A stretch of 64,000 bases of DNA, from the NCBI RefSeq assembly GCF_017348835.2, contig NZ_CP071375.1. One strand, given 5' to 3'. Under the pieces are notes generated by a model. It saw only the letters and a list, made by a program, of their open reading frames with translations. It was not told where the DNA came from and ran no database searches. Positions 43,578 through 55,976 of the stretch are shown here, piece after piece (position 1 is the stretch's first letter; each line of letters starts with the position of its first letter). The DNA comes from Escherichia coli (GTDB taxonomy: Bacteria; Pseudomonadota; Gammaproteobacteria; Enterobacterales; Enterobacteriaceae). The translations under genes and the position numbers were made by a program.

Positions 43578-44939
43578 TCAGAAGAACAGTGACGGATCGC
43601 CCGCCCGTTTGGTCAGGCGACCGTTTGCCATAATGCCCATGCTTTCCAGCCAGCGTTCAAACTCCGGTGACGGGCGCAGGTTGAGTAACTGACGCACAGT
43701 GGCGGTATCGTGGAATGCGGTGGTCTGGTAATTGAGCATGATGTCATCACCCAGCGGCATCCCCATGATGTAGTTGCAGCCTGCGGTGGCGAGCAGGATC
43801 ATCAGGTTTTCGTTGAGGTTCTGGTCAGCGTCAGCGTGGTTGGTGTAACAGCAGTCACAGCCCATAGAGATGCCGCTCAGCTTGCCCATAAAGTGATCTT
43901 CTAAGCCCGCACGAATAATCTGGCGGTCATTGTAGAGATACTCCGGCCCAATAAAGCCGACCACGGTGTTGACGATAAACGGATCGTAATGACGCGCCAG
44001 CCCGTAGTTACGCGCTTCCATGGTCACCTGGTCTGCGCCGTAGTTGGCACCCGCCGACAGCGCCGAACCTTGCCCGGTTTCGAAGTAGAGGCAGTTTTCC
44101 CCGGCGATACGGTTGAACTCTGCACCCACTGCGCGCGCTTCGTCGAGCATCGCCAGTTCCACGCCAAACTCTTTCAGCCCTTTTTCACTGCCACAGATAC
44201 TCTGGAAAATCAGCCCGCCTGGTGCGCCACGACGAATCGCTTCGATCTGGGTGGTGACGTGCGCCAGTACGCAGCCCTGAGTTGGGATGTTGAATTTGTC
44301 GATCACGCCATAGATGGTGTCCAGCACGCGGCTTAAGTTTTCCACGTCGTCAGTTACCGGGTTGACGCCGATCACCGCATCGCCCACCCCGAAGGAAAGC
44401 CCTTCGTAGATTTGCGCGGCGATACTTTGCACGTCGTCACGGGTGTCATTTGGCTGCAAACGGGCGCTAAAGGTGCCCGGAATACCGATGGTGGTATTGG
44501 CCTTTTTGATTACCGGCATTTTCTTCGCGCCGTAGATCAGGTCCGCGTTGGAGCAAATCTTCGCTACCGCCGCGACCACTTCCGAGGTCAGCCCTTTGCG
44601 GGTAAAGGCAATGTCGTCCACGCTGGTTTCATCGCTCAGCACATACTCACGCAGTTCGCTGATGCTCCAGTTTTTAATCTGGTTGTAGGCCGTTTCGTTA
44701 ACATCGTCCTGAATCAGCCGCGTCACGCAGTCATCTTCATAGGCAATCACCGGATTATTGCGGATGTCCGCTACGGTCATTTCCGACAACACCTGCTTTG
44801 CTGCCACGCGCTCCTGTGAGCTTGCCGCTGCAACGCCCGCCAGCACATCCCCCGAACGCAGTTCGTTGGCTTTAGCCAGCACCTCTTTTACATCCTTAAA
44901 CTGATATACATTGCCGAACAATGTGGTCTTTAGTTTCAT
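43578..44939 (-). CDS. eutB: ethanolamine ammonia-lyase large subunit
   Basis: ORF trimmed to MKLKTTLFGNVYQFKDVKEV... start (ATG complement 44937-44939), 453 aa. Confidence 0.93.
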   Translation of the reverse strand: MKLKTTLFGNVYQFKDVKEVLAKANELRSGDVLAGVAAASSQERVAAKQVLSEMTVADIRNNPVIAYEDDCVTRLIQDDVNETAYNQIKNWSISELREYVLSDETSVDDIAFTRKGLTSEVVAAVAKICSNADLIYGAKKMPVIKKANTTIGIPGTFSARLQPNDTRDDVQSIAAQIYEGLSFGVGDAVIGVNPVTDDVENLSRVLDTIYGVIDKFNIPTQGCVLAHVTTQIEAIRRGAPGGLIFQSICGSEKGLKEFGVELAMLDEARAVGAEFNRIAGENCLYFETGQGSALSAGANYGADQVTMEARNYGLARHYDPFIVNTVVGFIGPEYLYNDRQIIRAGLEDHFMGKLSGISMGCDCCYTNHADADQNLNENLMILLATAGCNYIMGMPLGDDIMLNYQTTAFHDTATVRQLLNLRPSPEFERWLESMGIMANGRLTKRAGDPSLFF

Positions 44940-45127
44940 AAGTCGTTCCCTCAGGAAGAAGTGATGAGTGACATTTTTCACAGCCTTCAAACAATTCTAT
45001 TTCATCGTTAACCCTTGTCCTGTAAGGTAATTACCTTAGTACGCCCGCTATTCATCCTGCCGAACGCAACCGAACGCGCCGGATACATGAGCGGGGTTAT
45101 CGAGTCGTTAGATCGAGGTATCCGGTT

Positions 45128-46333
45128 TTGAGCAAGACACCACTGACAGCAAAGGCCATAGAGGCCGCACAACCGCAGGACAAGCCCTATAAACTCACCG
45201 ATTCACAGACACCTGGCCTGTTTTTGCTGGTCCATCCCAACGGCAGCAAATACTGGCGATTCCGGTATTGGATAGACAAGAAGGAGCGGTTACAGGCTAT
45301 TGGGGTGTATCCGCTGATTAGCCTCAAGGAAGCCCGCAAACGCGCCACAGAGAGCCGTTTACTGATAGCCCAGGGAATTGACCCAATGGATTTGGCACGC
45401 AAGGAGAAAGCCATTGATGCTCTTAATGCTATCGCCAGTTTTAAAGCTGTAGCAGAAGACTGGATGGCTACCAAGGTGAGCGGATGGAGTGAGAGCTATA
45501 CAAAGCAGGTCAGATCGGCACTAGAGAAAGATGTTTACCCCGTGCTAGGTAAGCGGTCGATAGTGGATATAACGGCCCGTGACGTGCTGGCGTTACTACA
45601 GAAAAAGGAGCGCACCGCACCGGAACAAGCCAGGAAATTACGCCAGCGTATCGGGGAGATCTTCAAATTTGCCGTTATCACTGAACTGGTTAACCGGAAT
45701 CCGGTTGCAGATCTGGATACGGCACTGAAAGCCAGACGCCCAGGCCATAACGCGTGGATACCGATTAATGAAATTCCGGCCTTCTACAAAGCCCTTGAGA
45801 GAGCTGGGAGCGTTCAGATTCAGACGGCAATACTTTTGCTCATCCTCACAGCTTTGAGGACGGCAGAATTGCGCCTGATGCGCTGGGAATGGGTAGATCT
45901 GCAATCGGCAACAATCACATTGCCCGCTGAAGTCATGAAGGCCCGCCGACCGCATGTTGTCCCGCTATCCCGGCAGGCGGTCGAGCTATTACAGGACCAG
46001 TTTACCCGCAGCGGATACAGTGCTTTCGTCTTTCCTGGCCGATTCATGGACAAGCCACTTTCAGCCAGTGCCATCCTTAAAGCCCTGGAGCGTATCGGAT
46101 ACAAGTCGATAGCCACAGGCCACGGCTGGCGGACCACCTTTTCAACGGCGCTTAATGAGTCCGGCAGGTACTCACCAGACTGGATCGAAATCCAACTGGC
46201 CCACGTTCCGAAAGGCGTGCGCGGTGTTTATAACCAGGCGGCCTACCTGAAGCAACGACGGGCCATGATGCAGGATTATAGCGACTGTATTGATTCAATA
46301 CTGGCTGGTGACGGTAATCCACTTGAACCGTGA
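45128..46333 (+). CDS. intZ: P4-type tyrosine integrase
   Basis: 401-aa ORF (TTG start in the ORF track); N-terminal arm-binding-type domain (DKPYKLTDSQTPGLFLLVHPNGSKYWRFRYW), catalytic region with HGWR and terminal ...GVYNQAAYLKQRRAMMQ tyrosine motif. The symbol is assigned by position only. Confidence 0.85.
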   Translation: MSKTPLTAKAIEAAQPQDKPYKLTDSQTPGLFLLVHPNGSKYWRFRYWIDKKERLQAIGVYPLISLKEARKRATESRLLIAQGIDPMDLARKEKAIDALNAIASFKAVAEDWMATKVSGWSESYTKQVRSALEKDVYPVLGKRSIVDITARDVLALLQKKERTAPEQARKLRQRIGEIFKFAVITELVNRNPVADLDTALKARRPGHNAWIPINEIPAFYKALERAGSVQIQTAILLLILTALRTAELRLMRWEWVDLQSATITLPAEVMKARRPHVVPLSRQAVELLQDQFTRSGYSAFVFPGRFMDKPLSASAILKALERIGYKSIATGHGWRTTFSTALNESGRYSPDWIEIQLAHVPKGVRGVYNQAAYLKQRRAMMQDYSDCIDSILAGDGNPLEP

Positions 46334-46884
46334 ACTATAAGGCCGGGTTTATACTCAATATCGACGGTTGAAGCGCTCAAAAAACAACCGTGACAACCGT
46401 CACAAATATGCAATGTCAATGATCTGAATCAATAAATTGCCAATTCTTCGTTTCCACTTTCGAATGAAAGCAAGATGCAGAAAAATAAATCACCATGAAA
46501 TCATGTACTTATTAATTTTGACCAAATGGTCCAAAATATCCTCGGTGAATCCATGCTTGCCACAGCCAGATGATTAATATTTAACCCATGACTTTCGAAT
46601 GAAAGTAAATTGATAAAAAAGTCAGTGTACACTAACTAAATCGAATATTTTTTGCGCTATGTTTGAATGATAATTGAGCAAAACTTTCGCAAGGTGTGAC
46701 GATGTGAGTAATTAATTTTAACTCTACAATAAACCCATCCCGACAGGGATGGTACCTGGAGCGGAGCGAGAGGGACCATCCCCCTGTTTTTAGTCTTTTG
46801 AAGTTAGTTTTTTAAGGGATTAAATAATTTTGCCTCAAATGAGACCACACCATACAAGGCCAAAAACAATCAGTATTGCGTGGA

Positions 46885-47400
46885 TCAGGCTGGTTTTTTA
46901 ACTATATACCCCGTATGCCAAGGATTCTGATCGCGCGGCATCGGGTCCGCCTTGATAGACTCATAAAACTTATCAGCCATCTCAGCCACAAACTGTACAG
47001 AGGATTCGAACTCAGCGTTTTTGTGTGCGGGAGGAAACCAGAAGTCTAACACGCCAGCATTTCTATTTTTACATACAGCGTATATAAGATAAGCATCAGA
47101 TGTAGGGGTAACTTTTTCGAAACCACCGGGACCATAACGACCAGTAGACCAGTCATCCCAGCATTGTTCTGTCCCGCTATAGCCGTACTGATTGGTATAA
47201 AGACCAATATTTACATGGACTTTACGTAAGTGGATAGGATATACACACGGGGGTTTATGGAAAAGAGTATCCTTTCCAAAATCAGGATGATGTCCATATC
47301 TCCAATGATAAATAAACGAATCCTTAAAGCTCTTTAATTCATCGTTTGTTTTAAACTTATTATCACTGTAGACCTTACCAATAAATTCATTCTGGACCAT
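46885..47400 (-). CDS. YafO-like toxin-family protein (putative toxin of a two-gene module)
   Basis: 171-aa ORF from ATG (complement 47398-47400); motifs DFGKDTLF, PIHLRKVHVNIG, SDAYLIYAVCK, FWFPPAHKNAE and VAEMADKF line up with YafO motifs as I recall them (FGRDALY, HIHL, EAHLVYCQG, KPEPHKLA, MAEAF). Confidence 0.5.
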   Translation of the reverse strand: MVQNEFIGKVYSDNKFKTNDELKSFKDSFIYHWRYGHHPDFGKDTLFHKPPCVYPIHLRKVHVNIGLYTNQYGYSGTEQCWDDWSTGRYGPGGFEKVTPTSDAYLIYAVCKNRNAGVLDFWFPPAHKNAEFESSVQFVAEMADKFYESIKADPMPRDQNPWHTGYIVKKPA

Positions 47401-47734
47401 CAAAGCTTACACTCTTTAAGCGTTCTTCTCGTGAATCGAATAAATCTTTTGATAAATCACACGCTTGTGTGAACGTCATTTTTTTTACTCGTGGTACAGC
47501 CATAGGCGAGGCCGCATTCATCACTTTGTTTTCTTCGTGATCGAGAGTAGCAGTGTAGCGAAACATGACACTTTTACCGCGCACCAACTGGTATCCTAGT
47601 CGATACGCTAACGCGTCAAGATGCGTCAGACGATTTGTTTTACGCAAGCCAGTCATAGCTTTTGGCTTACGAGTGCGCACAGAAAGGGATTTCCCTTCTC
47701 GCTTAGTCGCAAACAAAGTAACTATTTTTGACAT
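47387..47734 (-). CDS. small basic protein, putative partner/antitoxin of the downstream toxin-like gene
   Basis: 115-aa ORF from ATG (complement 47732-47734) with GGAGAT RBS; stop lies 10 bp before the downstream gene start; Lys/Arg-rich N-terminus. Confidence 0.45.
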   Translation of the reverse strand: MSKIVTLFATKREGKSLSVRTRKPKAMTGLRKTNRLTHLDALAYRLGYQLVRGKSVMFRYTATLDHEENKVMNAASPMAVPRVKKMTFTQACDLSKDLFDSREERLKSVSFDGPE

Positions 47735-48706
47735 GGTATCTCCTGACATCAATCTGCTAAGGCCATTGTGCCTTGTTTGAATAGTAAACTATTCGCCCAA
47801 TCTACACCAGTGATTTTCTTGACGCCAATAGTAAAGGCAGCATTGCCCACCACAGGCAGACAATGAGACTTCAGATAGCGCACCTTCTATCGCGCACGCG
47901 CTCAATAAAACCAACGACACCGCCATCCTGCCTGACCGATGTTTTTAACCAGCGTATACAGAGAAACAGACAACAGCATGAAATCAGCGTATATCCAGGT
48001 GCAGACGGCACTATCACACAACGCACAGCAGGCTGAGGTGAACACTCAAGCAACTTTATCCCCGCCACCGACCACCGCAAACTATCATGACCGTGCCAAA
48101 TTCAAAAGGAATGGCCCATATAACGCGATGAACACACATAAGCGCTACACTTGCTTACCTGAAAACTTCACAGCGTCACAGCGCGTTTTAGACACGTTAA
48201 AATTAATGAGATTTCATTAAATTTTCACCAGACACCGGAACAAGCCTATAAATCAAAAATGAATTACCGACATGCGCCGCTGGCGTTCACAGGAAGAATC
48301 AATAACTTAGGCCAATGGCGAAAGTTAAACAAAATCAAGAACTTGCAGAAATGCAGGATGAAGCAGCCGATGTGCCCCGTTGGATTTTACCAGAAGAATC
48401 AACAAGTTAGACTCGGTGATTTCACCGACTCCTGCCGGACTACTGACCAGATCGAACCATTCCCCAAATTTGGGGAGAGCAAACCACACGCAGATCCTGC
48501 CAGGCTATTTCATCCCACCGCATCACGTATTTGCACACTTCCCCGCTGACGTGCTCATTTTGATAACGAGTTACCCGCTAGCCCTTGCCACATCACCATT
48601 TGTCGCGCTTTGACTAAATTAGCGACGTGCCTGTTATAGCGATACGCTAGTTATGCAGAAAGCGCGACATATCCAGCAACCATGCACCCTACAGAGGAAT
48701 TGAATC

Positions 48707-49159
48707 ATGCGAGACATAGACTGGTCAGCTATCCCTTTCGATGATTTACCGCCCTGGCATCTGGACTGGGACGTAGACCAACGCGAAAACGCGACATATC
48801 CAGCAACCACCAGCATTACAGCGATGCGCCCCGTAAAGCCTAAGAAATACCAGGCAACCGACCTGATAGCTCACCTCAAAGCTATTGGCGGCGTATTTAC
48901 CGGAAGCAAAGACACGCTTGCACATGAAGTATGGCCCCGGAAGACGCCAGCGGGTCGAACCGTTTTACGCTTACTGACCGAACTGTCAGACAACGGCGAC
49001 GCTGTAGTGATTAACCGTGGTCGTTGTGGCGTGGAAGTTATTCTGACGCCGAAGAACAGGGCACAGACGCCTGAATTAAGCGCACCCAAGCAAATGCATA
49101 GCCAAAAATTAAGTCCAGCAGAACGCGTTATATCGCTTTTAAATGGCATCGGATTTTAA
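48707..49159 (+). CDS. hypothetical island protein
   Basis: 150-aa ORF with GAGGA RBS 8 nt upstream of ATG; no recognisable family. Confidence 0.5.
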   Translation: MRDIDWSAIPFDDLPPWHLDWDVDQRENATYPATTSITAMRPVKPKKYQATDLIAHLKAIGGVFTGSKDTLAHEVWPRKTPAGRTVLRLLTELSDNGDAVVINRGRCGVEVILTPKNRAQTPELSAPKQMHSQKLSPAERVISLLNGIGF

Positions 49160-49185
49160 TTAATTTTGATGTGGTAATTGCAGGC

Positions 49186-49212
49186 AAAAAAATCCCGCCG
49201 GAGAAAGCGGGG
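49186..49212 (-). terminator. rho-independent terminator oriented for minus-strand transcripts
   Basis: Minus strand reads CCCCGCtttctccgGCGGGattttttt (on plus strand the A-run precedes the hairpin). Confidence 0.55.
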
Positions 49213-49446
49213 AAGTGAAATCAATCGTTGTAGTTATAGATCACATTTTGGAGTTGAGGATGGCTAATCCTCGCTAATATTATCGCGCCGTTATGTGATG
49301 GGCGCAATTATTTCTTACTAATTAAAAGTTTTGTAAATATTACAGAATATCCCTTTTCACTATATGGTAAAAGATGTGAAACAGGGACATGAGGAATATA
49401 ATATTAAGTATCAACAGTAATGTTGGTCTTTAATTTCATTCAGGGC

Positions 49447-49489
49447 GCGGTGAGGGTTTTCTCCATATTTTTCCTCACCGCTACTTTTT
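49447..49489 (+). promoter_or_regulatory. terminator/attenuator-like hairpin in the alpA leader
   Basis: GCGGTGAGG-17 nt loop-CCTCACCGC followed by tacttttt, immediately upstream of the alpA RBS. Confidence 0.45.
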
Positions 49490-49501
49490 CGAGGTGAGAA
49501 C

Positions 49502-49693
49502 ATGAATGATAGCGAATTAATGACGGTGAACGAGGTAGCCGCTTTATTCGGCGTTACCCGTCGGACAATATTCCGGTGGATGAACAAGATTAAAGGCTGG
49601 CCCGTCCCGGTCAGTCCGATTGGCTCAAGAATTAAGTTTATCCGATCTGAGATTTTGGAATTCTATAAAAACAAAGGCGCTCGCCACCAATGA
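49502..49693 (+). CDS. alpA: AlpA-family phage/island transcriptional regulator (excision control)
   Basis: 63-aa ORF MTVNEVAALFGVTRRTIFRWMNKIKGWPVPVSPIGSRIKFIRSEILEF: typical AlpA HTH signature; RBS GAGGTGAG. Confidence 0.8.
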   Translation: MNDSELMTVNEVAALFGVTRRTIFRWMNKIKGWPVPVSPIGSRIKFIRSEILEFYKNKGARHQ

Positions 49694-49832
49694 AAACAGC
49701 TACTGAGATTATCAAATAACCTATTGATTTAAAAAGCTAGCTACCGCAATTTCTGAAGGAATAGGCAGCATGAAAATCAAAGCAAACACAATTAAAGAAA
49801 TAACATCAATCAAAGTAAAAGGAGCAGATGCC

Positions 49833-50096
49833 ATGCATTCATTAGATAGTTATTTTCAGCGCACGACAGCCCCTAAATCAGCCGCCCAGGAACGCCGTGA
49901 GGAATTCCAGGAAAAAGTGATGCGTTCTGCTGATTATATTGCGGACAAGTTCGCGGAAACGGTTCGGCCACTTGTTGATGAAGTAGCTGATAAACTTCAG
50001 TCTGAAATGCCGGAAGACATGGAAGGCACTGCAAAGGCGCGACTCCTTTTTGAATTAAGTCGTCGTTTCGGCGTGTCAATAAGCACTTTTAAATAA
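49833..50096 (+). CDS. hypothetical small acidic protein
   Basis: 87-aa ORF from ATG 49833 with AAAGGAG RBS 8 nt upstream. Confidence 0.5.
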   Translation: MHSLDSYFQRTTAPKSAAQERREEFQEKVMRSADYIADKFAETVRPLVDEVADKLQSEMPEDMEGTAKARLLFELSRRFGVSISTFK

Positions 50097-50113
50097 TCGG
50101 AGGAGGAAAGACA

Positions 50114-50656
50114 ATGGACGCATTTGATGTACTGACAAACAAAGGCGATGAACTGGTAGCACAGCGTGATAAAACCGCCAACGAAGGGGAACGCGCACTG
50201 TTAAATAAGCAGATTAAAGCGATCCGTATGGCCCAGTTTAAATTAATCAGCAATGAAGTTATCGAAAAAATTAAACCGCAGATCCCACAAATCGTTGCTG
50301 ACGCTATTAAAGCCGCCGGACTGGAGAAACGCATTGCCGGGCTGAAAACGAACGCAGAGAAAATGGAGATGCACAAACAGAGCGGTGCTCCGACTCCGGA
50401 TGAGTACTTCTCACCGGATGCTGAGTTTATGGCGCAGGTTGAGGAACGTCTGGGTAGCTGTCTCACCGAGGAACAGTGTCGCTATTTTGATGGAGTGGAT
50501 AGTTCGGCAGGTATTGACCTGAACTCGTATTTCGGTCGTGAAATTGAGCATTTTGATGCCGCCCCGTCTATGCCGGAGCCAGAACCAGAAATGGCCGCCG
50601 ATCCTGAAGCTGAGCAACGGAAACGCGTATTCAATGCGATAGGGATTCGGTACTGA
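50114..50656 (+). CDS. hypothetical protein (phage-associated)
   Basis: 180-aa ORF with strong GGAGGAGG RBS; acidic C-terminus. Confidence 0.55.
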   Translation: MDAFDVLTNKGDELVAQRDKTANEGERALLNKQIKAIRMAQFKLISNEVIEKIKPQIPQIVADAIKAAGLEKRIAGLKTNAEKMEMHKQSGAPTPDEYFSPDAEFMAQVEERLGSCLTEEQCRYFDGVDSSAGIDLNSYFGREIEHFDAAPSMPEPEPEMAADPEAEQRKRVFNAIGIRY

Positions 50657-50664
50657 TCGGATAA

Positions 50665-50688
50665 AAGAAAGCCGGGAATTACCCCGGC
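50665..50688 (-). terminator. hairpin terminator, T-tract on the minus strand
   Basis: GCCGGGaattacCCCGGC preceded on plus strand by ataaaagaaa (minus strand: hairpin then tttcttttat). Confidence 0.45.
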
Positions 50689-50707
50689 TGACTTAACAAT
50701 GTGACCA

Positions 50708-51082
50708 ATGAACAAATCGGACAAGACAAACAGGATAAGCAGTCTCGAAACAATGTTCGGGAACTATATTAGCACAAGTCCGGAGAAAATCATCATGTTG
50801 GCACTACGCATCATGCAGGGCATCGCTAAGACCCTCGCAGAACATGTCTTAGACCTGAAACATTCGCCACTGAGCAAACAGGCCATGAAGCGCCAAACGC
50901 TTCGTCTGTGGGCTGAATATTCGCTTGGAACTATCAATAAAATCATCGACATGAAATCGGGGCCGAGCAACCAGAGCGCGGAGGAAATGGAGTTCATCAG
51001 GCGTTTAATTCTCATTCGCAGAGACATTCATAGCCAGTTACACAGCGTGGGAATCGATATTAATGATGGGACGGGCGATTAA
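50708..51082 (+). CDS. hypothetical protein
   Basis: 124-aa ORF; weak RBS. Confidence 0.45.
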   Translation: MNKSDKTNRISSLETMFGNYISTSPEKIIMLALRIMQGIAKTLAEHVLDLKHSPLSKQAMKRQTLRLWAEYSLGTINKIIDMKSGPSNQSAEEMEFIRRLILIRRDIHSQLHSVGIDINDGTGD

Positions 51083-51120
51083 TTTTCGGACAAGTACTAT
51101 GCGCGCGCGAGGAGCTGAAC

Positions 51121-51351
51121 ATGAAGCAAGATATTGCAGACAGGCTGGAGATACTCGAAGGCCAGCGGGCAGAAGCGAAACAACTACGTAAGCAGGCCAG
51201 AAGAGCGCACAGGAACTACGAAGCAGAATCACTGACCGCTTTCATCAACTTCACAAACCGTTGCATCCTGGAGTGTTACAGGGAGGATGCAGAAAACTGG
51301 CTGGATTCATTGCCAGAACAGACTCTGCATGAACTGAACGGCGACCAGTAA
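51121..51351 (+). CDS. hypothetical small protein
   Basis: 76-aa ORF with GAGGAG RBS 6 nt upstream. Confidence 0.5.
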   Translation: MKQDIADRLEILEGQRAEAKQLRKQARRAHRNYEAESLTAFINFTNRCILECYREDAENWLDSLPEQTLHELNGDQ

Positions 51352-51638
51352 ATAAATCCAGTACGTTTCCCGCAGTGCGCATAACGTACATTATGTGAAA
51401 AACGATATGGATATATATCAGTCTGACTTCAATGAAGAAAACGGACTTCCAGCATCAACCACAAAGAAGTATGGCTAATGCAGCTTTATAAGCCATTGAT
51501 TCTATTAAACGATATTTTTTGTGATTGGTTGAAGCAAACCAAAACACGATGCCACTGAAGCGTTAATAAACTGTTTCAATGTGAAATTATCAGAGTAAAG
51601 AACAATTTGGAGGGTCCGCAAACGCGGATAACAATATC

Positions 51639-53819
51639 ATGAGTGGAAATCTCGGGACCATATACTACGAGGTCGATGCCCGCACTGGGAAACTTCTTAT
51701 CGCGCAACAGCAGGCGGAAGAGGCGTTCGATCGCATTGAACGAGGAGCGCGGAAGGCTGATAGCGGCGTCAAAAAGTTAAATACGCAGATGACTAAAACA
51801 TCAGCCGCAGTCAAAACCAACCTTTCCCCGGCAATCCGTAACGCATCATACCAGATCGCAGACCTTGCCACTCAATTGCAGATGGGCGGTAATGCGCTTC
51901 AGGCGTTCGCTGTGCAGGGTGCGCAGTTATTAGCTGGCTTTGGCACGATGGGCGCGGTAGCTGGCGCGGTGCTGGCTATCGCTGGCGCTATGGGTGGAAG
52001 CCTGGCACAAGGCGCTGATAGTGCAGCCGGATCGGTTGAGTATCTGGACAAGGCGATCACCAAACTGAACGAGGTCATAGCTGTAAATGAACAGGGCGTG
52101 ACGGTGATGAGTGATAGTTACGCCAGACTTTCTAAGGTTAACGCTGAAGTAGCGAAACAGATGCGGAACATGGCTGAAATTCAGGCAATTGCAGCACTGC
52201 GTGACCTGAAAGAACAGGCAAGCCAGGCACAGGGGGAAATGTCGTCATTCTGGCGCAGCTTGCAGGGTGGTAAAGCTGACGCAGCAGCAGCAGCACAGGC
52301 ACTTGATGATCTTGGAATCACAACCAACGACTACAAAGAGGCGATAGCCATACTGAACGCCAATCAGCCGGATACACAGGCGCAAATGGCAACGCTAGCT
52401 AAGTCCGTGATGTACATAGGCGAGGAATACAACCTGACAAACCAGCAAGCCTACGAGTTCATCCGAGCACTAAATAGGGCCGCGACAACGAGAACGCCGG
52501 AAGCCATGCAGGAACTATCGGGCTTCATGCAGGTATTGCTACAGGACACCGAAAACGGTAACGAGGCATTCCGTGAACTGGCTATCAAATTCGTTGATGC
52601 ACAAACCAAAGGCGCAATGCTGGAAGACCAACTAAACCGACTGAAAGGCGCTATCAGTGACGCAGCCACAGAAGCCAGAAACGCCAATTTTACCACTATG
52701 CTCAACACCGTCGCCGCACGCCTGGCAGCCATTGAGCAAGGTTGGGAGGCAGGCGTTAGGATGCAGATGAAAGCCCAGGGCTACACTGAAGAGCAGATCG
52801 ATGAATATGTGAACATGGAAACGGCGTACCGTGATGCAAAAGCCGCTTTGGACGAGAAGAATAAGGCCGACCGTGAAGCTATTGCGCTATCCAAACGCCA
52901 GGCCGCAGAAGCAGCCCGCAAGGCAAAACAGGAAGAAGCTGAAGCACAACGCAAGGCCAAACAGTTAGCCGCGCAGAAGGAGCAGGCAGGACGCTTTACG
53001 CAGCAAGTAATGACGGAATACCTGACGACCGTAGATCCGGCAACAGGCAAGGCGTTTAACCCTGCCGCACAAGTAGAAATGCAGGAGCAGCAGAAGAAAG
53101 CGGCGCTGGATAAATACAGACAGTTGGGCGTCCTGGATGAACAGCAGTACCAGAACACGCTAACCGCCATCCAGAAAACCGCGTCAATGCGCCGCCAGCA
53201 AATCATCAAAGACGAGGCCGACACGTTATTCAACAATCAGCAACAGTTGATCGGCACATTTGGCGATTTCTTCGGTGAACTGTCTGGAGTCATAGCAGAC
53301 GGTGCAGGTGAGCAAAACGCGGCATATCAAGCGCTATTTGCTGTGCAGAAGGGTTTTGTATTGGCATCAGCAGCTTTAAGCCTTCAGAAAGCGCTTGCTG
53401 AGGCAAACGCCTTGCCTTTCCCGGCTAATCTTCCGGCCTATGCGCAAGCTATGTCAGCAGGCACGCAGATCATTTCAGCTATTCGTGGAATAGCTTTCGG
53501 TGGCGGACGCTACAACGGCGGCGCGGTTGGTGCTGGCAACCTGTACCGCGTGGGTGAACACGGTAAGCCTGAGATATTCAAGGCGAACAATGGCAGCCAG
53601 TACATGATCCCAGGTGATAACGGTCGCGTGATAAGTAATCGTGACATTGGCGGCGGTGGCGGCGTAACAATCAACAGCCCGATCACCATTAACACTACGA
53701 ATGGCTTCAGTGATGAAGACTCAAGGCGTCTTGAGGAAGCGATGAAGCGCGTAGCTATGGGCGTTTGCAGGCAGGAGTCAACCAGACCGGGAGGAATGTT
53801 AGCCCCGCGCCGTCGTTAA
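51639..53819 (+). CDS. phage tail tape-measure-like protein
   Basis: 726-aa ORF: glycine/alanine-rich hydrophobic segment (LLAGFGTMGAVAGAVLAIAGAMGGSLAQGADSAAG), long A/Q/E/K-rich coiled-coil middle, C-terminal G-rich region with YRVGEHGKPE motif. Confidence 0.7.
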   Translation: MSGNLGTIYYEVDARTGKLLIAQQQAEEAFDRIERGARKADSGVKKLNTQMTKTSAAVKTNLSPAIRNASYQIADLATQLQMGGNALQAFAVQGAQLLAGFGTMGAVAGAVLAIAGAMGGSLAQGADSAAGSVEYLDKAITKLNEVIAVNEQGVTVMSDSYARLSKVNAEVAKQMRNMAEIQAIAALRDLKEQASQAQGEMSSFWRSLQGGKADAAAAAQALDDLGITTNDYKEAIAILNANQPDTQAQMATLAKSVMYIGEEYNLTNQQAYEFIRALNRAATTRTPEAMQELSGFMQVLLQDTENGNEAFRELAIKFVDAQTKGAMLEDQLNRLKGAISDAATEARNANFTTMLNTVAARLAAIEQGWEAGVRMQMKAQGYTEEQIDEYVNMETAYRDAKAALDEKNKADREAIALSKRQAAEAARKAKQEEAEAQRKAKQLAAQKEQAGRFTQQVMTEYLTTVDPATGKAFNPAAQVEMQEQQKKAALDKYRQLGVLDEQQYQNTLTAIQKTASMRRQQIIKDEADTLFNNQQQLIGTFGDFFGELSGVIADGAGEQNAAYQALFAVQKGFVLASAALSLQKALAEANALPFPANLPAYAQAMSAGTQIISAIRGIAFGGGRYNGGAVGAGNLYRVGEHGKPEIFKANNGSQYMIPGDNGRVISNRDIGGGGGVTINSPITINTTNGFSDEDSRRLEEAMKRVAMGVCRQESTRPGGMLAPRRR

Positions 53820-54317
53820 CCAAATCCCACGCCAGGGGGATAGACTGGCGGCCTTTCAATTCCGTTGAAACGACGGAATCAAACACCCCGATTCAGGGTA
53901 TTTAAACGTCGCGTTTCACGACATTTATCTAAGTCATTGATTTATATTGTAACTCATAATTGAGTTGCGCCGACCATCCCGCCACAAACGCTCCTACGCA
54001 AAAATTCCCTCACAATTACCCTGCCAATTTTCCAGATTTCACGTATACGCGCCTATATCCCCGCCACCGGATACACGCCCGCTTATACCGGATACTTTTA
54101 TGCCATCATTATTAAATCCATTAATAATCATCAAACCATAATTAGCACAACTTATAATCGAACAAAAAACACACAACATTGATAATGATTTTTTCTGGTT
54201 ATACTTATCTAAAAAAGTGGTATGGGAAGTAACTTATTGTTTTGTAATTACAAATTTATTGCGTGGTCAGATGAACAGACTTGCGCACCTCCCGAAAAAC
54301 ACGCGAAAATCGAAGTG

Positions 54318-54427
54318 TTCTTTCTTTTTTTGTTTTTTATTTTTTTATTTTCTCTTTTTCTTCTCTTTCCGGTTCTCTTCTTTTTCTGGTTTTGGTTTTT
54401 TCCTTTTTTATTTTTATTCTTTCTTCA
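54318..54427. repeat. polypyrimidine (T/C) low-complexity tract
   Basis: ~110 bp almost exclusively T and C on the plus strand (tctttctttttttgttttttatttttttattttctc...). Confidence 0.9.
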
Positions 54428-54572
54428 GGGTTGTGATCAAACACACCAAAACATTTTCGCCACAAAAGCGTTAATTTCATCCTGCCAGACCATTCACTTT
54501 CACCGGATACACAGCCGGATATAATCCCGCTAACACCCAGCCACCCAGCATCACGCCTGATAACTACCGTAT

Positions 54573-55976
54573 TCAGGAAGGAAATGCGAGTGATTTCACC
54601 GTCACCGGCACAACCGATCCGCCAAAAAGAGGCGTACCAATGTCGATATAGTCCCCCGCGCGGACAATCACTTCGTCAATGACTGCCAACGGGAGTTGTT
54701 GTAGCTGTGGGCGCAACAACATGCCCAGAGCTTTACCAAAGTCCTGCCCGGCCACCACCAGCAGGGGATGCGGATTCGGAAAACGCGCGACGAAATCGAC
54801 CAACGCGTTGATGACCGTCAGTACCGCGGCGTAACGCACAGGCAGCGAGGCGGGAAGCGCCAGCACGTACGCGTCAGTTTTGGGATCAAGATCCAGCTGA
54901 ATCAGCGCCTGTTGCCAGGCACTCACCAGATCCGTTTCATCAATCGGGATCGCCACCGGCAAATTGCGCAGCGGCAGTTGTACGCCCTCCAGCCAGATTG
55001 TGCTGCCAGAGAGCGAAAGGGTATGTGCACCCGCGCCAATCACCGTGGCGCGTACGGTTTGCGCCGGAAACTGCACGTTCATCTCACGCAGGCGCGGATG
55101 GTCATGCAGCGCCGTTGCCAGAAGCGGGCCAATATCGGCAAAACAGAACGGGTCGGCGGGCTGGTGGCGATAACATTCGCCCACGCCGCCAGAAAGCGTA
55201 ATGATTTCGGGCGTAACACCTGCGGGCAGCAAACCGGTTTGCATTAATGCCTGCGCGAGCGGCGAAAGCGTTCCGTCAATCACTTCGACAATCAGCTCTG
55301 CCATCCGCCAGGTAACCTGCACCAGCTGCGCGCCGGTCAGCGAACGGGCGTCGGTGCCTGCGCCGAAGCACTCATCCACAATCATCTGCCCCGGTTTATG
55401 AGCGTAAACCACGCGCCCCTGGCTGTCGGTTTCCAGCAGGCGACCACCGACGTTGAGGCAGGCAGTGCCGCTGATTTTTCCGGCATCGAACAGGGCGTAG
55501 TTCGCGGTGCCACCGCCGATGTCGATATTCAGTACCCGACACAGCCGTTGTTCAGAAAGGGTTTGCGCCCCGGCACCGTGACCGGCGATCACGGATTCGA
55601 GGTGCGGCCCGGCGCTGGCGACGACAAAATCGCCCAGCGACTGAGAGAGCGCCATCACCGCCGGGCGAGCATTGCGGGTTTTCGCGCTTTCACCGGTGAT
55701 GATGATGGCACCAGAATCAACGCTTTCCGGCGCAATGCCCGCAGCCTGATATTGCTCTAAAATCAGCGATTTCAGTTCCGCTTCTTTTAAACCACCCTGT
55801 TTATCGACAGGGGTAAAGAACACCGGGCTTTGCCAGCTAATTTCGCGTTTGATGAATTCGTAGCGCGGCACCTGCGACACCGCCGCACGGTTAACCAGTT
55901 CCAGGTGGGAGAAAATCACCTGGGTGGTGGTGGTGCCGATATCGATACCGACGCTCAGTAGCTGGCGAGTGTTCAC
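54573..55976 (-). CDS. eutA: ethanolamine ammonia-lyase reactivating factor
   Basis: 467-aa ORF ending ...VTVKSLAFPS; operon context. Confidence 0.9.
   Translation of the reverse strand: MNTRQLLSVGIDIGTTTTQVIFSHLELVNRAAVSQVPRYEFIKREISWQSPVFFTPVDKQGGLKEAELKSLILEQYQAAGIAPESVDSGAIIITGESAKTRNARPAVMALSQSLGDFVVASAGPHLESVIAGHGAGAQTLSEQRLCRVLNIDIGGGTANYALFDAGKISGTACLNVGGRLLETDSQGRVVYAHKPGQMIVDECFGAGTDARSLTGAQLVQVTWRMAELIVEVIDGTLSPLAQALMQTGLLPAGVTPEIITLSGGVGECYRHQPADPFCFADIGPLLATALHDHPRLREMNVQFPAQTVRATVIGAGAHTLSLSGSTIWLEGVQLPLRNLPVAIPIDETDLVSAWQQALIQLDLDPKTDAYVLALPASLPVRYAAVLTVINALVDFVARFPNPHPLLVVAGQDFGKALGMLLRPQLQQLPLAVIDEVIVRAGDYIDIGTPLFGGSVVPVTVKSLAFPS

Follow-up and report, generated by a model that had tools for sequence, protein, structure and literature searches.

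A conserved stem-loop in the leader of a small HTH regulator gene in CPZ-55-type islands of Escherichia coli, a candidate leaky attenuator

A small helix-turn-helix (HTH) gene in a CPZ-55-type island of Escherichia coli is preceded by a leader stem-loop which, according to the comparison of island variants, is evolutionarily maintained and not a chance structure, with selection preserving both the pairing and the T-run that follows it. In the window, the whole 64,000-nucleotide stretch of E. coli chromosome analysed here, the stem-loop occupies positions 49447-49481 of the + strand. As far as can be judged from the sequences, it is a feature of the + strand RNA placed between a conserved promoter element and the Shine-Dalgarno (SD) sequence of the gene. 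In our preferred reading, to which we assign a probability of about 0.5, it would be a leaky, intrinsic-terminator-like attenuator gating the rightward operon headed by the HTH gene.

Elements of this kind, with a leader terminator before a mobile-element regulator, are well known, and a leader terminator ahead of a regulator gene is, taken alone, a familiar arrangement. The instance described here is new and well supported, and belongs to a previously unstudied family of islands. Should the hairpin prove to be a gated terminator, it would mark the switch-on point of a class of E. coli islands that is widespread but unstudied; about 4% of complete E. coli genomes contain the leader together with the HTH gene. 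As late as 2018, the means by which Gram-negative satellites sense their helper phage was described as unidentified (PMC6092414). Being short and swappable, with compensatory variants available in nature, the stem-loop also lends itself readily to reporter assays and transcription in vitro.

The leader and its stem-loop

A putative promoter for the leader is found upstream of the stem-loop on the + strand. Its -10 element, TATAAT at 49397-49402, scored 9/12 together with a weak -35-like ATGTGA at 49374-49379, at a spacing of 17 nt, and TA(T/A)AAT is located 40-45 nt upstream of the stem in 14 of the 14 variants compared. The -35-like hexamer lies inside a conserved 30-bp block, CACTATATGGTAAAAGATGTGAAACAGGGA (49358-49387, +), which is nearly invariant between the island classes A and C (defined below) while its flanks diverged; the upstream DNA of these two classes is diverged as well, but still alignable. 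Classes D and E have a decent -35 (TTGAAC or TTGCAC), whereas the -35 of classes A and C is poor. A poor -35 after such a strongly conserved block suggests that the promoter of classes A and C depends on an activator, and the block itself may be the binding site of that activator. Transcription would start near 49409, giving a leader of about 90 nt in which the stem begins about 38 nt past the start. Since the stem is followed by the start codon after only about 10-25 nt, too short a stretch to accommodate another promoter, transcription of the HTH gene must pass through the hairpin. The minimum free energy (MFE) structure of the full leader also contains a small first hairpin, CAACA-GUAA-UGUUG, predicted at 49412-49425 (+). 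In one variant (L014) this first hairpin has changes in its loop and flank but an intact stem.

The main stem is built of the 5′ arm GCGGTGAGG(G) at 49447-49456 and the 3′ arm (T)CCTCACCGC at 49472-49481, which enclose a U/C-rich loop of 15 nt (49457-49471). It consists of nine Watson-Crick pairs and one G.U pair and is G+C-rich, thus longer than the minimum of 5-7 bp expected of a terminator stem. Behind it lies the tail TACTTTTTC (49482-49490), made of TAC and the T-run TTTTT (49485-49489), which is a candidate for a terminator U-tract or for a U-rich ribosome standby segment. The SD region GAGGTGAG follows at 49491-49498, with GAGG at 49491-49494, and is located 7 nt before the ATG at 49502 that opens a 63-aa ORF with its stop codon at 49691-49693 (all on the + strand).

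The original prediction of a hairpin with a 9-bp stem and a T-run directly before the ribosome-binding site (RBS) is confirmed by this sequence, the element lying in the 5′ leader, and RNA structure prediction, which had been suggested as a check, came out in its favour. The energy of the hairpin was -16.8 to -18.2 kcal/mol, the loop being counted as 15-17 nt. In a local fold of 47 nt the hairpin was both the MFE and the centroid structure, at -18.2 kcal/mol compared to a mean of -6.9 for shuffled sequences (z = -5.3), and none of 200 shuffles was as good. Within a 71-nt context the z-score of the fold was only -1.72. A consensus terminator scan was silent on the hairpin because it admits loops of 3-8 nt only, and Rfam 15 gave no covariance-model matches at E <= 1 over 44900-54700 on both strands.

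Stem-loops at the same position in sister islands

Equivalent regions were gathered from sister islands at the eut site and from a second site beside rssA/ychJ. Every collected variant presents the same succession of a G+C-rich stem, a loop, a C and then a T-run, GAGG, and a start codon, while the stems themselves are of at least ten distinct types (A, D, E, E2, B, C, C2, F, G, H) at one position, each 7-11 bp long. Class A (window, L004, L014, L017, L018) has the arms GCGGTGAGGG / TCCTCACCGC, class D (L048, L052) the arms GGCGGC(T)GTG / CACGCCGCC, and class E (L049) the arms GCGGCGGTTG / CAGCCGCCGC, from which E2 (L051) differs by one G.U and one A.C. The arms of class B (L005, L011) can be drawn as CCACCAG / CTGGTGG or as GCCGCUAGG / CCUGGUGGC. 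Class C (L008, L010, L015, L038, L040) has CCGCCTCCAGG / CCTGGGGGCGG, and C2 (L047) has the same arms with a different loop. The remaining classes are F (L050), with CCGCCCCCCAG / CTGCGGGGGGG, G (L056), with CCGCCCCCAG / CTG(C)GGGGCGG, and H (L057, L058), with CCGCCCCAGG / CCTGGGGCGG.

Classes A, D and E have a homologous loop (UUUUCUCCAUAUUU) and flanks in common. When A and E are aligned in register, the stem shows four double changes that preserve pairing, namely U-A to C-G, A-U to G-C, G-C to U.G, and G-C to U-A. In the A/D/E alignment, 85.5% of the cells are paired, compared to 47-71% with the partner slid by 1-3 columns. The covariation score of the alignment was reached by none of 500 shuffles; the pairing result stands despite the register shift of the class D rows in this alignment. 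Variation within classes is limited to indels of 1-6 nt, in the loop or in the interval between the T-run and the SD, while the arms are invariant. The arms in the window are those of L004 and L014, yet synonymous sites in the adjacent gene differ from these islands by 0.35-0.39. Local folds of seven relatives had z-scores between -2.0 and -5.9.

The elements behind the stem are equally constant. A run of T4-T8 after a C is found 1-5 nt beyond the stem in every variant, and GAGG 5-8 nt before the start codon in all of them. Variant H has a perfect 10-bp helix as its stem, and the CUUAUUUUUUU that abuts it is a nearly canonical U-tract. The class B element lies between a canonical alpA gene (66 aa), whose stop codon it directly follows, and the HTH gene, which comes immediately after it, so that its position, as read from the gene order, is that of a gene-end or intercistronic terminator.

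The arms also form an exact 9-bp inverted repeat with class-specific sequences, as would be expected of specificity determinants, and the element could accordingly function as DNA, serving as an operator or a recombination site for the HTH protein, the integrase or some other factor. We regard this as very unlikely. The spacing of the arms, 14-38 bp, is incompatible with a fixed dimer geometry, internal G.U pairs would turn into A.C mismatches both in the opposite strand and in a palindrome of DNA, and stem type C is found both with HTH family 1 (L008) and with HTH family 2 (L047); moreover, the co-conserved T-run would be left without a role. The internal G.U pairs, present in classes E and C, and the better folding of the + strand, which outfolds the - strand in six of the eight variants, point instead to an RNA structure of the sense transcript.

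The distribution of the element seems to be narrow. A covariance model (R1) gave strong matches to variants of A, D and E and only weak ones to class C, with no new classes. No relatives were found outside E. coli and Shigella in a search of one genome per species, nor any among IMG/VR viral contigs and GenBank phages, and a DNA-pattern scan of metagenomes returned only more copies of leader classes A, B and C together with unrelated matches. A literature search found the core sequences of the hairpin and of the neighbouring candidate small RNA (sRNA, see below) in no paper.

Termination and alternative roles of the hairpin

According to the attenuator reading, a promoter with its -10 at 49397-49402 would initiate ~38 nt before the stem, and the hairpin with its U-run would be a leaky intrinsic terminator directly before the SD of the first gene. 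The majority of transcripts would end as a short leader RNA of ~80 nt, while the read-through fraction would give the 63-aa HTH protein with its excisionase-type fold and the genes behind it. The genes gated in this way would be the small ORFs and the tape-measure-like gene in the window, and would include HNH and TerS-like genes in sister islands. Read-through might be conditional, for instance raised by a helper-phage or island factor, and the 63-aa protein could act as a regulator or as a recombination directionality factor. That the hairpin ends transcription is something we infer from its sequence and that of its relatives.

Several traits are unusual for a terminator. Typical intrinsic terminators have loops of 3-10 nt, whereas the loop counts 15-17 nt here and the arms of the relatives are separated by 14-38 nt. 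In most variants, 3-5 nt separate the stem from the beginning of the T-run; in the window this offset is 3 nt, and the tail UACUUUUU has 6 U among its first 8 nt. With a position-weighted score of -3.24, this tail ranks at about the 5th percentile of the 15-mers of the window, and the scores of the relatives are only -2.1 to -4.5 compared to a random mean of -2.0.

Such long loops and offset T-runs would sit better with a leader structure that does not terminate, for example an mRNA stabiliser, an SD insulator or a pause hairpin in RNAP-first ribosome coupling, with the U-run enhancing translation as an S1 or standby site. In every case the T-run is found within 1-6 nt of the SD, and its distance is equally constant from the SD as from the stem; thus, it could be a U-rich translation element instead. 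The SD is also largely free in several classes once the stem has formed. This alternative is possible but on the whole unlikely, as SD accessibility is inconsistent among the classes (P(paired) 0.03-0.99), the hairpin is situated away from the 5′ end, where stabilising stems act, a canonical U-tract abuts the stem in variant H, and the class B element is found exactly at the place of a gene-end terminator. The same range of SD pairing between classes, 0.03-0.99, led us to reject conserved SD sequestration or a thermometer of the fourU type.

Translational repression through a pseudoknot was considered as well, in which the SD and start region, rich in purines, would be masked by pairing to the pyrimidine-rich loop. 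Visual inspection shows complementarity between loop segments such as GUUUUCUCC and GGUGAGAAC, and in the MFE structure of class B a CU tract is paired with the SD and AUG. In variant H, however, the loop is not rich in pyrimidines, and in 15 of 15 sequences the duplex energies were no better than those of composition-matched shuffled loops (fraction as good 0.12-0.99), so that we rejected this candidate and give it very little credence.

The original prediction also took the hairpin to suggest conditional read-through and not constitutive expression. The position of the element and the selection on it fit gating better than simple constitutive expression. The terminator reading is weakened by the 15-nt loop and by the T-run offset of 3 nt, and the conditional part by the lack of both a conserved leader peptide and a conserved alternative hairpin. 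In the leader folds there is no conserved alternative (antiterminator) pairing, and no upstream segment is complementary to either arm. Classical attenuation would call for a leader peptide translated through the hairpin, and an ORF of 25 codons does run from an ATG at 49420 to a TGA at 49495-49497; open frames of classes A, C and C2 likewise begin near the inferred transcript start, cross the hairpin and end at the SD or ATG or beside it. Next to no weight can be given to this explanation, since the leader ATG is without an SD, classes D and E have no conserved start, and indels of 1 nt break the frame (L004, L017 and L018 compared to the window, L015 and L038 compared to L008), for which reason it was rejected. 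As no cis mechanism for conditionality was found, read-through at the proposed attenuator may be simply partial or dependent on a factor acting in trans.

Relation to known systems

Promoter-proximal terminators just before the first gene are known to gate alpB of Pseudomonas aeruginosa and the lambdoid late operons (PMC7969949, PMC9371919). The lambdoid PR′-tR′ with Q, the P. aeruginosa PalpB-tB with AlpA, and the leader described here have in common a sigma70-type promoter, a hairpin with a U-run within tens of nucleotides, and the first gene of a phage-like operon. The P. aeruginosa tB, a weak terminator (PMC7969949, PMC9371919), starts 54 nt from the start site, and the stem in the window about 38 nt from the inferred start. 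On the other hand, the Q and P. aeruginosa AlpA systems possess an antiterminator, while none was identified here, and the loops are much longer here than in cassettes of those types. A -10-like pause element in the initially transcribed region is not common to all classes either, AAGTAT following the -10 in class A and TATATC in class C, with no equivalent in classes D and E. The P. aeruginosa AlpA has eight helices with an HTH formed by H7-H8 near residue 140, in a Q-like fold (PMC9371919), and was rejected as a homologue of the 63-aa protein, a single winged-helix domain; the two are unrelated and the name is a coincidence. The 63-aa protein also lacks the N-terminal ring and C-terminal HTH of Q-like antiterminators.

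The AlpA switch of Gram-negative phage-inducible islands (PICIs) such as EcCICFT073 (PMC6092414) resembles the present case in having a small HTH gene, an integrase-bearing, satellite-like E. coli island, and co-oriented downstream genes. In PICIs, the helper phage turns on AlpA, which activates both its own expression and the cycle of the island (PMC6092414). Unlike the PICI AlpA, the 63-aa protein has no Phage_AlpA match and its gene is not adjacent to int. A leader hairpin for the PICI alpA is mentioned neither in PMC6092414 nor in PMC11773190, the word "hairpin" occurring 0 times in the latter.

The 63-aa HTH protein

The ORF at 49502-49693 is evidently a real gene; it is annotated in RefSeq as an HTH transcriptional regulator, and its pN/pS values compared to homologues are 0.16-0.41. 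The best Pfam match of the protein is HTH_17 (PF12728, E = 7.2e-9), and Phage_AlpA (PF05930) is absent from the 12 Pfam families that match it at E <= 0.01. TIGR01764 (excise) scored 23.6 bits, below its cut-off of 28.8, while phrog_66, "excisionase and transcriptional regulator", was matched at E = 1.7e-9; the best sequence E-value in PDB was 0.27. The AF2 model (pLDDT 78.9) is a beta-alpha-alpha-beta-beta-alpha winged helix of the MerR-like kind, with the elements E6-8, H9-16, H20-29, E36-40, E43-47 and H48-61. The top Foldseek matches were BldC, RacA, the RdfS excisionase, Pukovnik and Tn916 Xis, and DNA-binding domains of small terminases, with TM-scores of 0.57-0.64, and the model thus suggests an excisionase/MerR-type winged-helix fold. 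The MerR-like winged helix is common to lambda-type Xis, Pukovnik Xis, RdfS, Tn916 Xis, BldC and the model of the 63-aa protein, although the sequence signal is weak. Such a fold does not fix the function, because transcription factors and DNA-binding domains of terminases use it as well.

The assignment of the protein to the AlpA family, made in the original prediction, holds only in part. Some database sources label homologues with 74-78% identity as "AlpA family", and the modelled fold is of the excisionase type; against the label are the lack of a PF05930 match and the AlpA that sister islands have of their own. Besides this HTH gene, these islands have a canonical AlpA encoded separately beside int, which argues that the 63-aa protein is not simply the AlpA of the island. 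In class B, the int-adjacent 66-aa gene gives a weak Phage_AlpA match. An AlpA gene would be expected directly downstream of a P4-type integrase gene and co-oriented with it, whereas in the window intZ ends at 46333 and the HTH gene starts at 49502, a distance of 3.2 kb that is occupied by a YafO-like pair and a 150-aa ORF. A tblastn search of the island found no alpA remnant. With the gene located 3.2 kb from intZ and at the head of the rightward operon, a role of the protein in controlling the integrase or excision is only a guess. From its position the HTH gene is best described as the first-gene regulator of that operon, and judging from the modelled fold its product is possibly a recombination directionality factor encoded there.

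The HTH family is a narrow one, found only in E. coli and Shigella when phage genomes, viral contigs and one genome per species were searched. The same type of leader also precedes a second, different family of small HTH genes (L047, L050).

A neighbouring candidate small RNA

A candidate sRNA gene was found upstream of the leader on the opposite strand, from a terminator scan, a promoter-like site and conservation. With its promoter it covers 49186-49307 (-), and the RNA would extend from about 49272 to 49186. The promoter-like site consists of TTGCGC (49307-49302) and GATAAT (49284-49279), separated by a spacer of 17 nt. The predicted RNA has a 5′ hairpin at 49273-49257 (-), whose place is taken by unrelated stems in other classes, a core that is unpaired and highly conserved, CAAAAUGUGAUCUAUAACUACAACGAU, and a terminator at 49211-49194 (-) followed by T7, which was detected by the terminator scan. 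Twelve variants conserve this element, and one pair of its terminator shows a compensatory change.

In sister islands with an HNH gene after the HTH gene, 13-15 nt of the core are near-perfectly complementary to the RBS of HNH. The duplexes have energies of -16.6 to -22.6 kcal/mol, whereas shuffled cores give about -8 to -12; not more than one of 400 shuffles did as well in any of the seven islands, and in six of them none did. Furthermore, the core and its HNH target co-vary across the sister islands. The island in the window contains neither the HNH gene nor any such target. Pairing of the sRNA with the leader or its SD was rejected, the z-scores (-2.3 to +1.6) being inconsistent between islands.

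The CI-RNA of P4 immunity is a small structured satellite RNA that is complementary to a ribosome-binding region in an operon of the same satellite. Like it, the candidate sRNA is complementary to a ribosome-binding region in the early or late operon of the satellite itself. It differs in having its own divergent promoter on the opposite strand, so that it would act in trans, and in the absence of its target, the HNH RBS, from the window. It also has no Rfam match, which extends to C4 and P4 CI-type RNAs if these are included in release 15.

If these features are taken together, the hairpin could be the gate of a read-through switch that senses helper phage in undescribed small satellites of the CPZ-55 type at eutB/eutA, with the sRNA as a second layer. 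Transcription would give a terminated leader of ~80 nt until a factor encoded by a phage or by the island lets RNA polymerase pass, and the passage would turn on the operon with the HTH, HNH and TerS-like genes, while the divergent, trans-acting sRNA would provide a second, RNA-based layer of immunity by masking the HNH ribosome-binding site. We consider this extended scenario speculative and distinctly unlikely as a whole.

The island and its distribution

The island is ~9.4 kb long and sits between eutB (43578-44990, -) on its left and eutA (54573-55976, -) on its right. It begins with the integrase gene intZ (45128-46333, +), followed by the YafO-like pair (46885-47752, -), which is divergent from intZ, and by the 150-aa ORF (48707-49159, +). 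The 63-aa HTH ORF (49502-49693, +) is the first gene of the rightward operon; four small ORFs are listed after it, and the 726-aa tape-measure-like gene (51639-53819) lies further rightward. The region of the leader and HTH gene was matched in 205 of 5426 complete E. coli genomes, being covered by at least 80% in 139, and island copies identical to that of the window come from pig, chicken, human and soil isolates.

The YafO-like toxin ORF, of 172 aa, matched phrog_1651 at E = 9e-43, with a Pfam YafO_toxin score below the cut-off, and overlaps a 121-aa ORF located upstream of it. Judging from their sequences and arrangement, the two are probably a toxin-antitoxin addiction module of the island.

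The islands between eutB and eutA (45128-54500 in the window; L008, L047-L052, L055) constitute a family of ~9-12 kb elements. They have int and a small HTH gene, and some members also carry HNH, TerS-like (Sf6_terminase), HK97 gp10-like and 726-aa tape-measure-like genes; genes for capsid, portal, large terminase and primase are lacking throughout the family. By gene content they look like degenerate or minimalist phage satellites with no clean fit to described families.

A direct-repeat search at the island gave no convincing att sites. At its right end, just before eutA, there is a low-complexity, pyrimidine-rich (T/C) tract of ~110 bp (54320-54430), which could be related to the attachment-site region. 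The CPZ-55 element of E. coli K-12 (L054), which was tried as a reference, has neither this HTH gene nor the hairpin. At the corresponding place (about 4457-4545 of L054) it contains four tandem iterons of 22 bp, with the sequence about GGTGGGTCAAAAGTTGCCGTTA, which resemble a replication origin.
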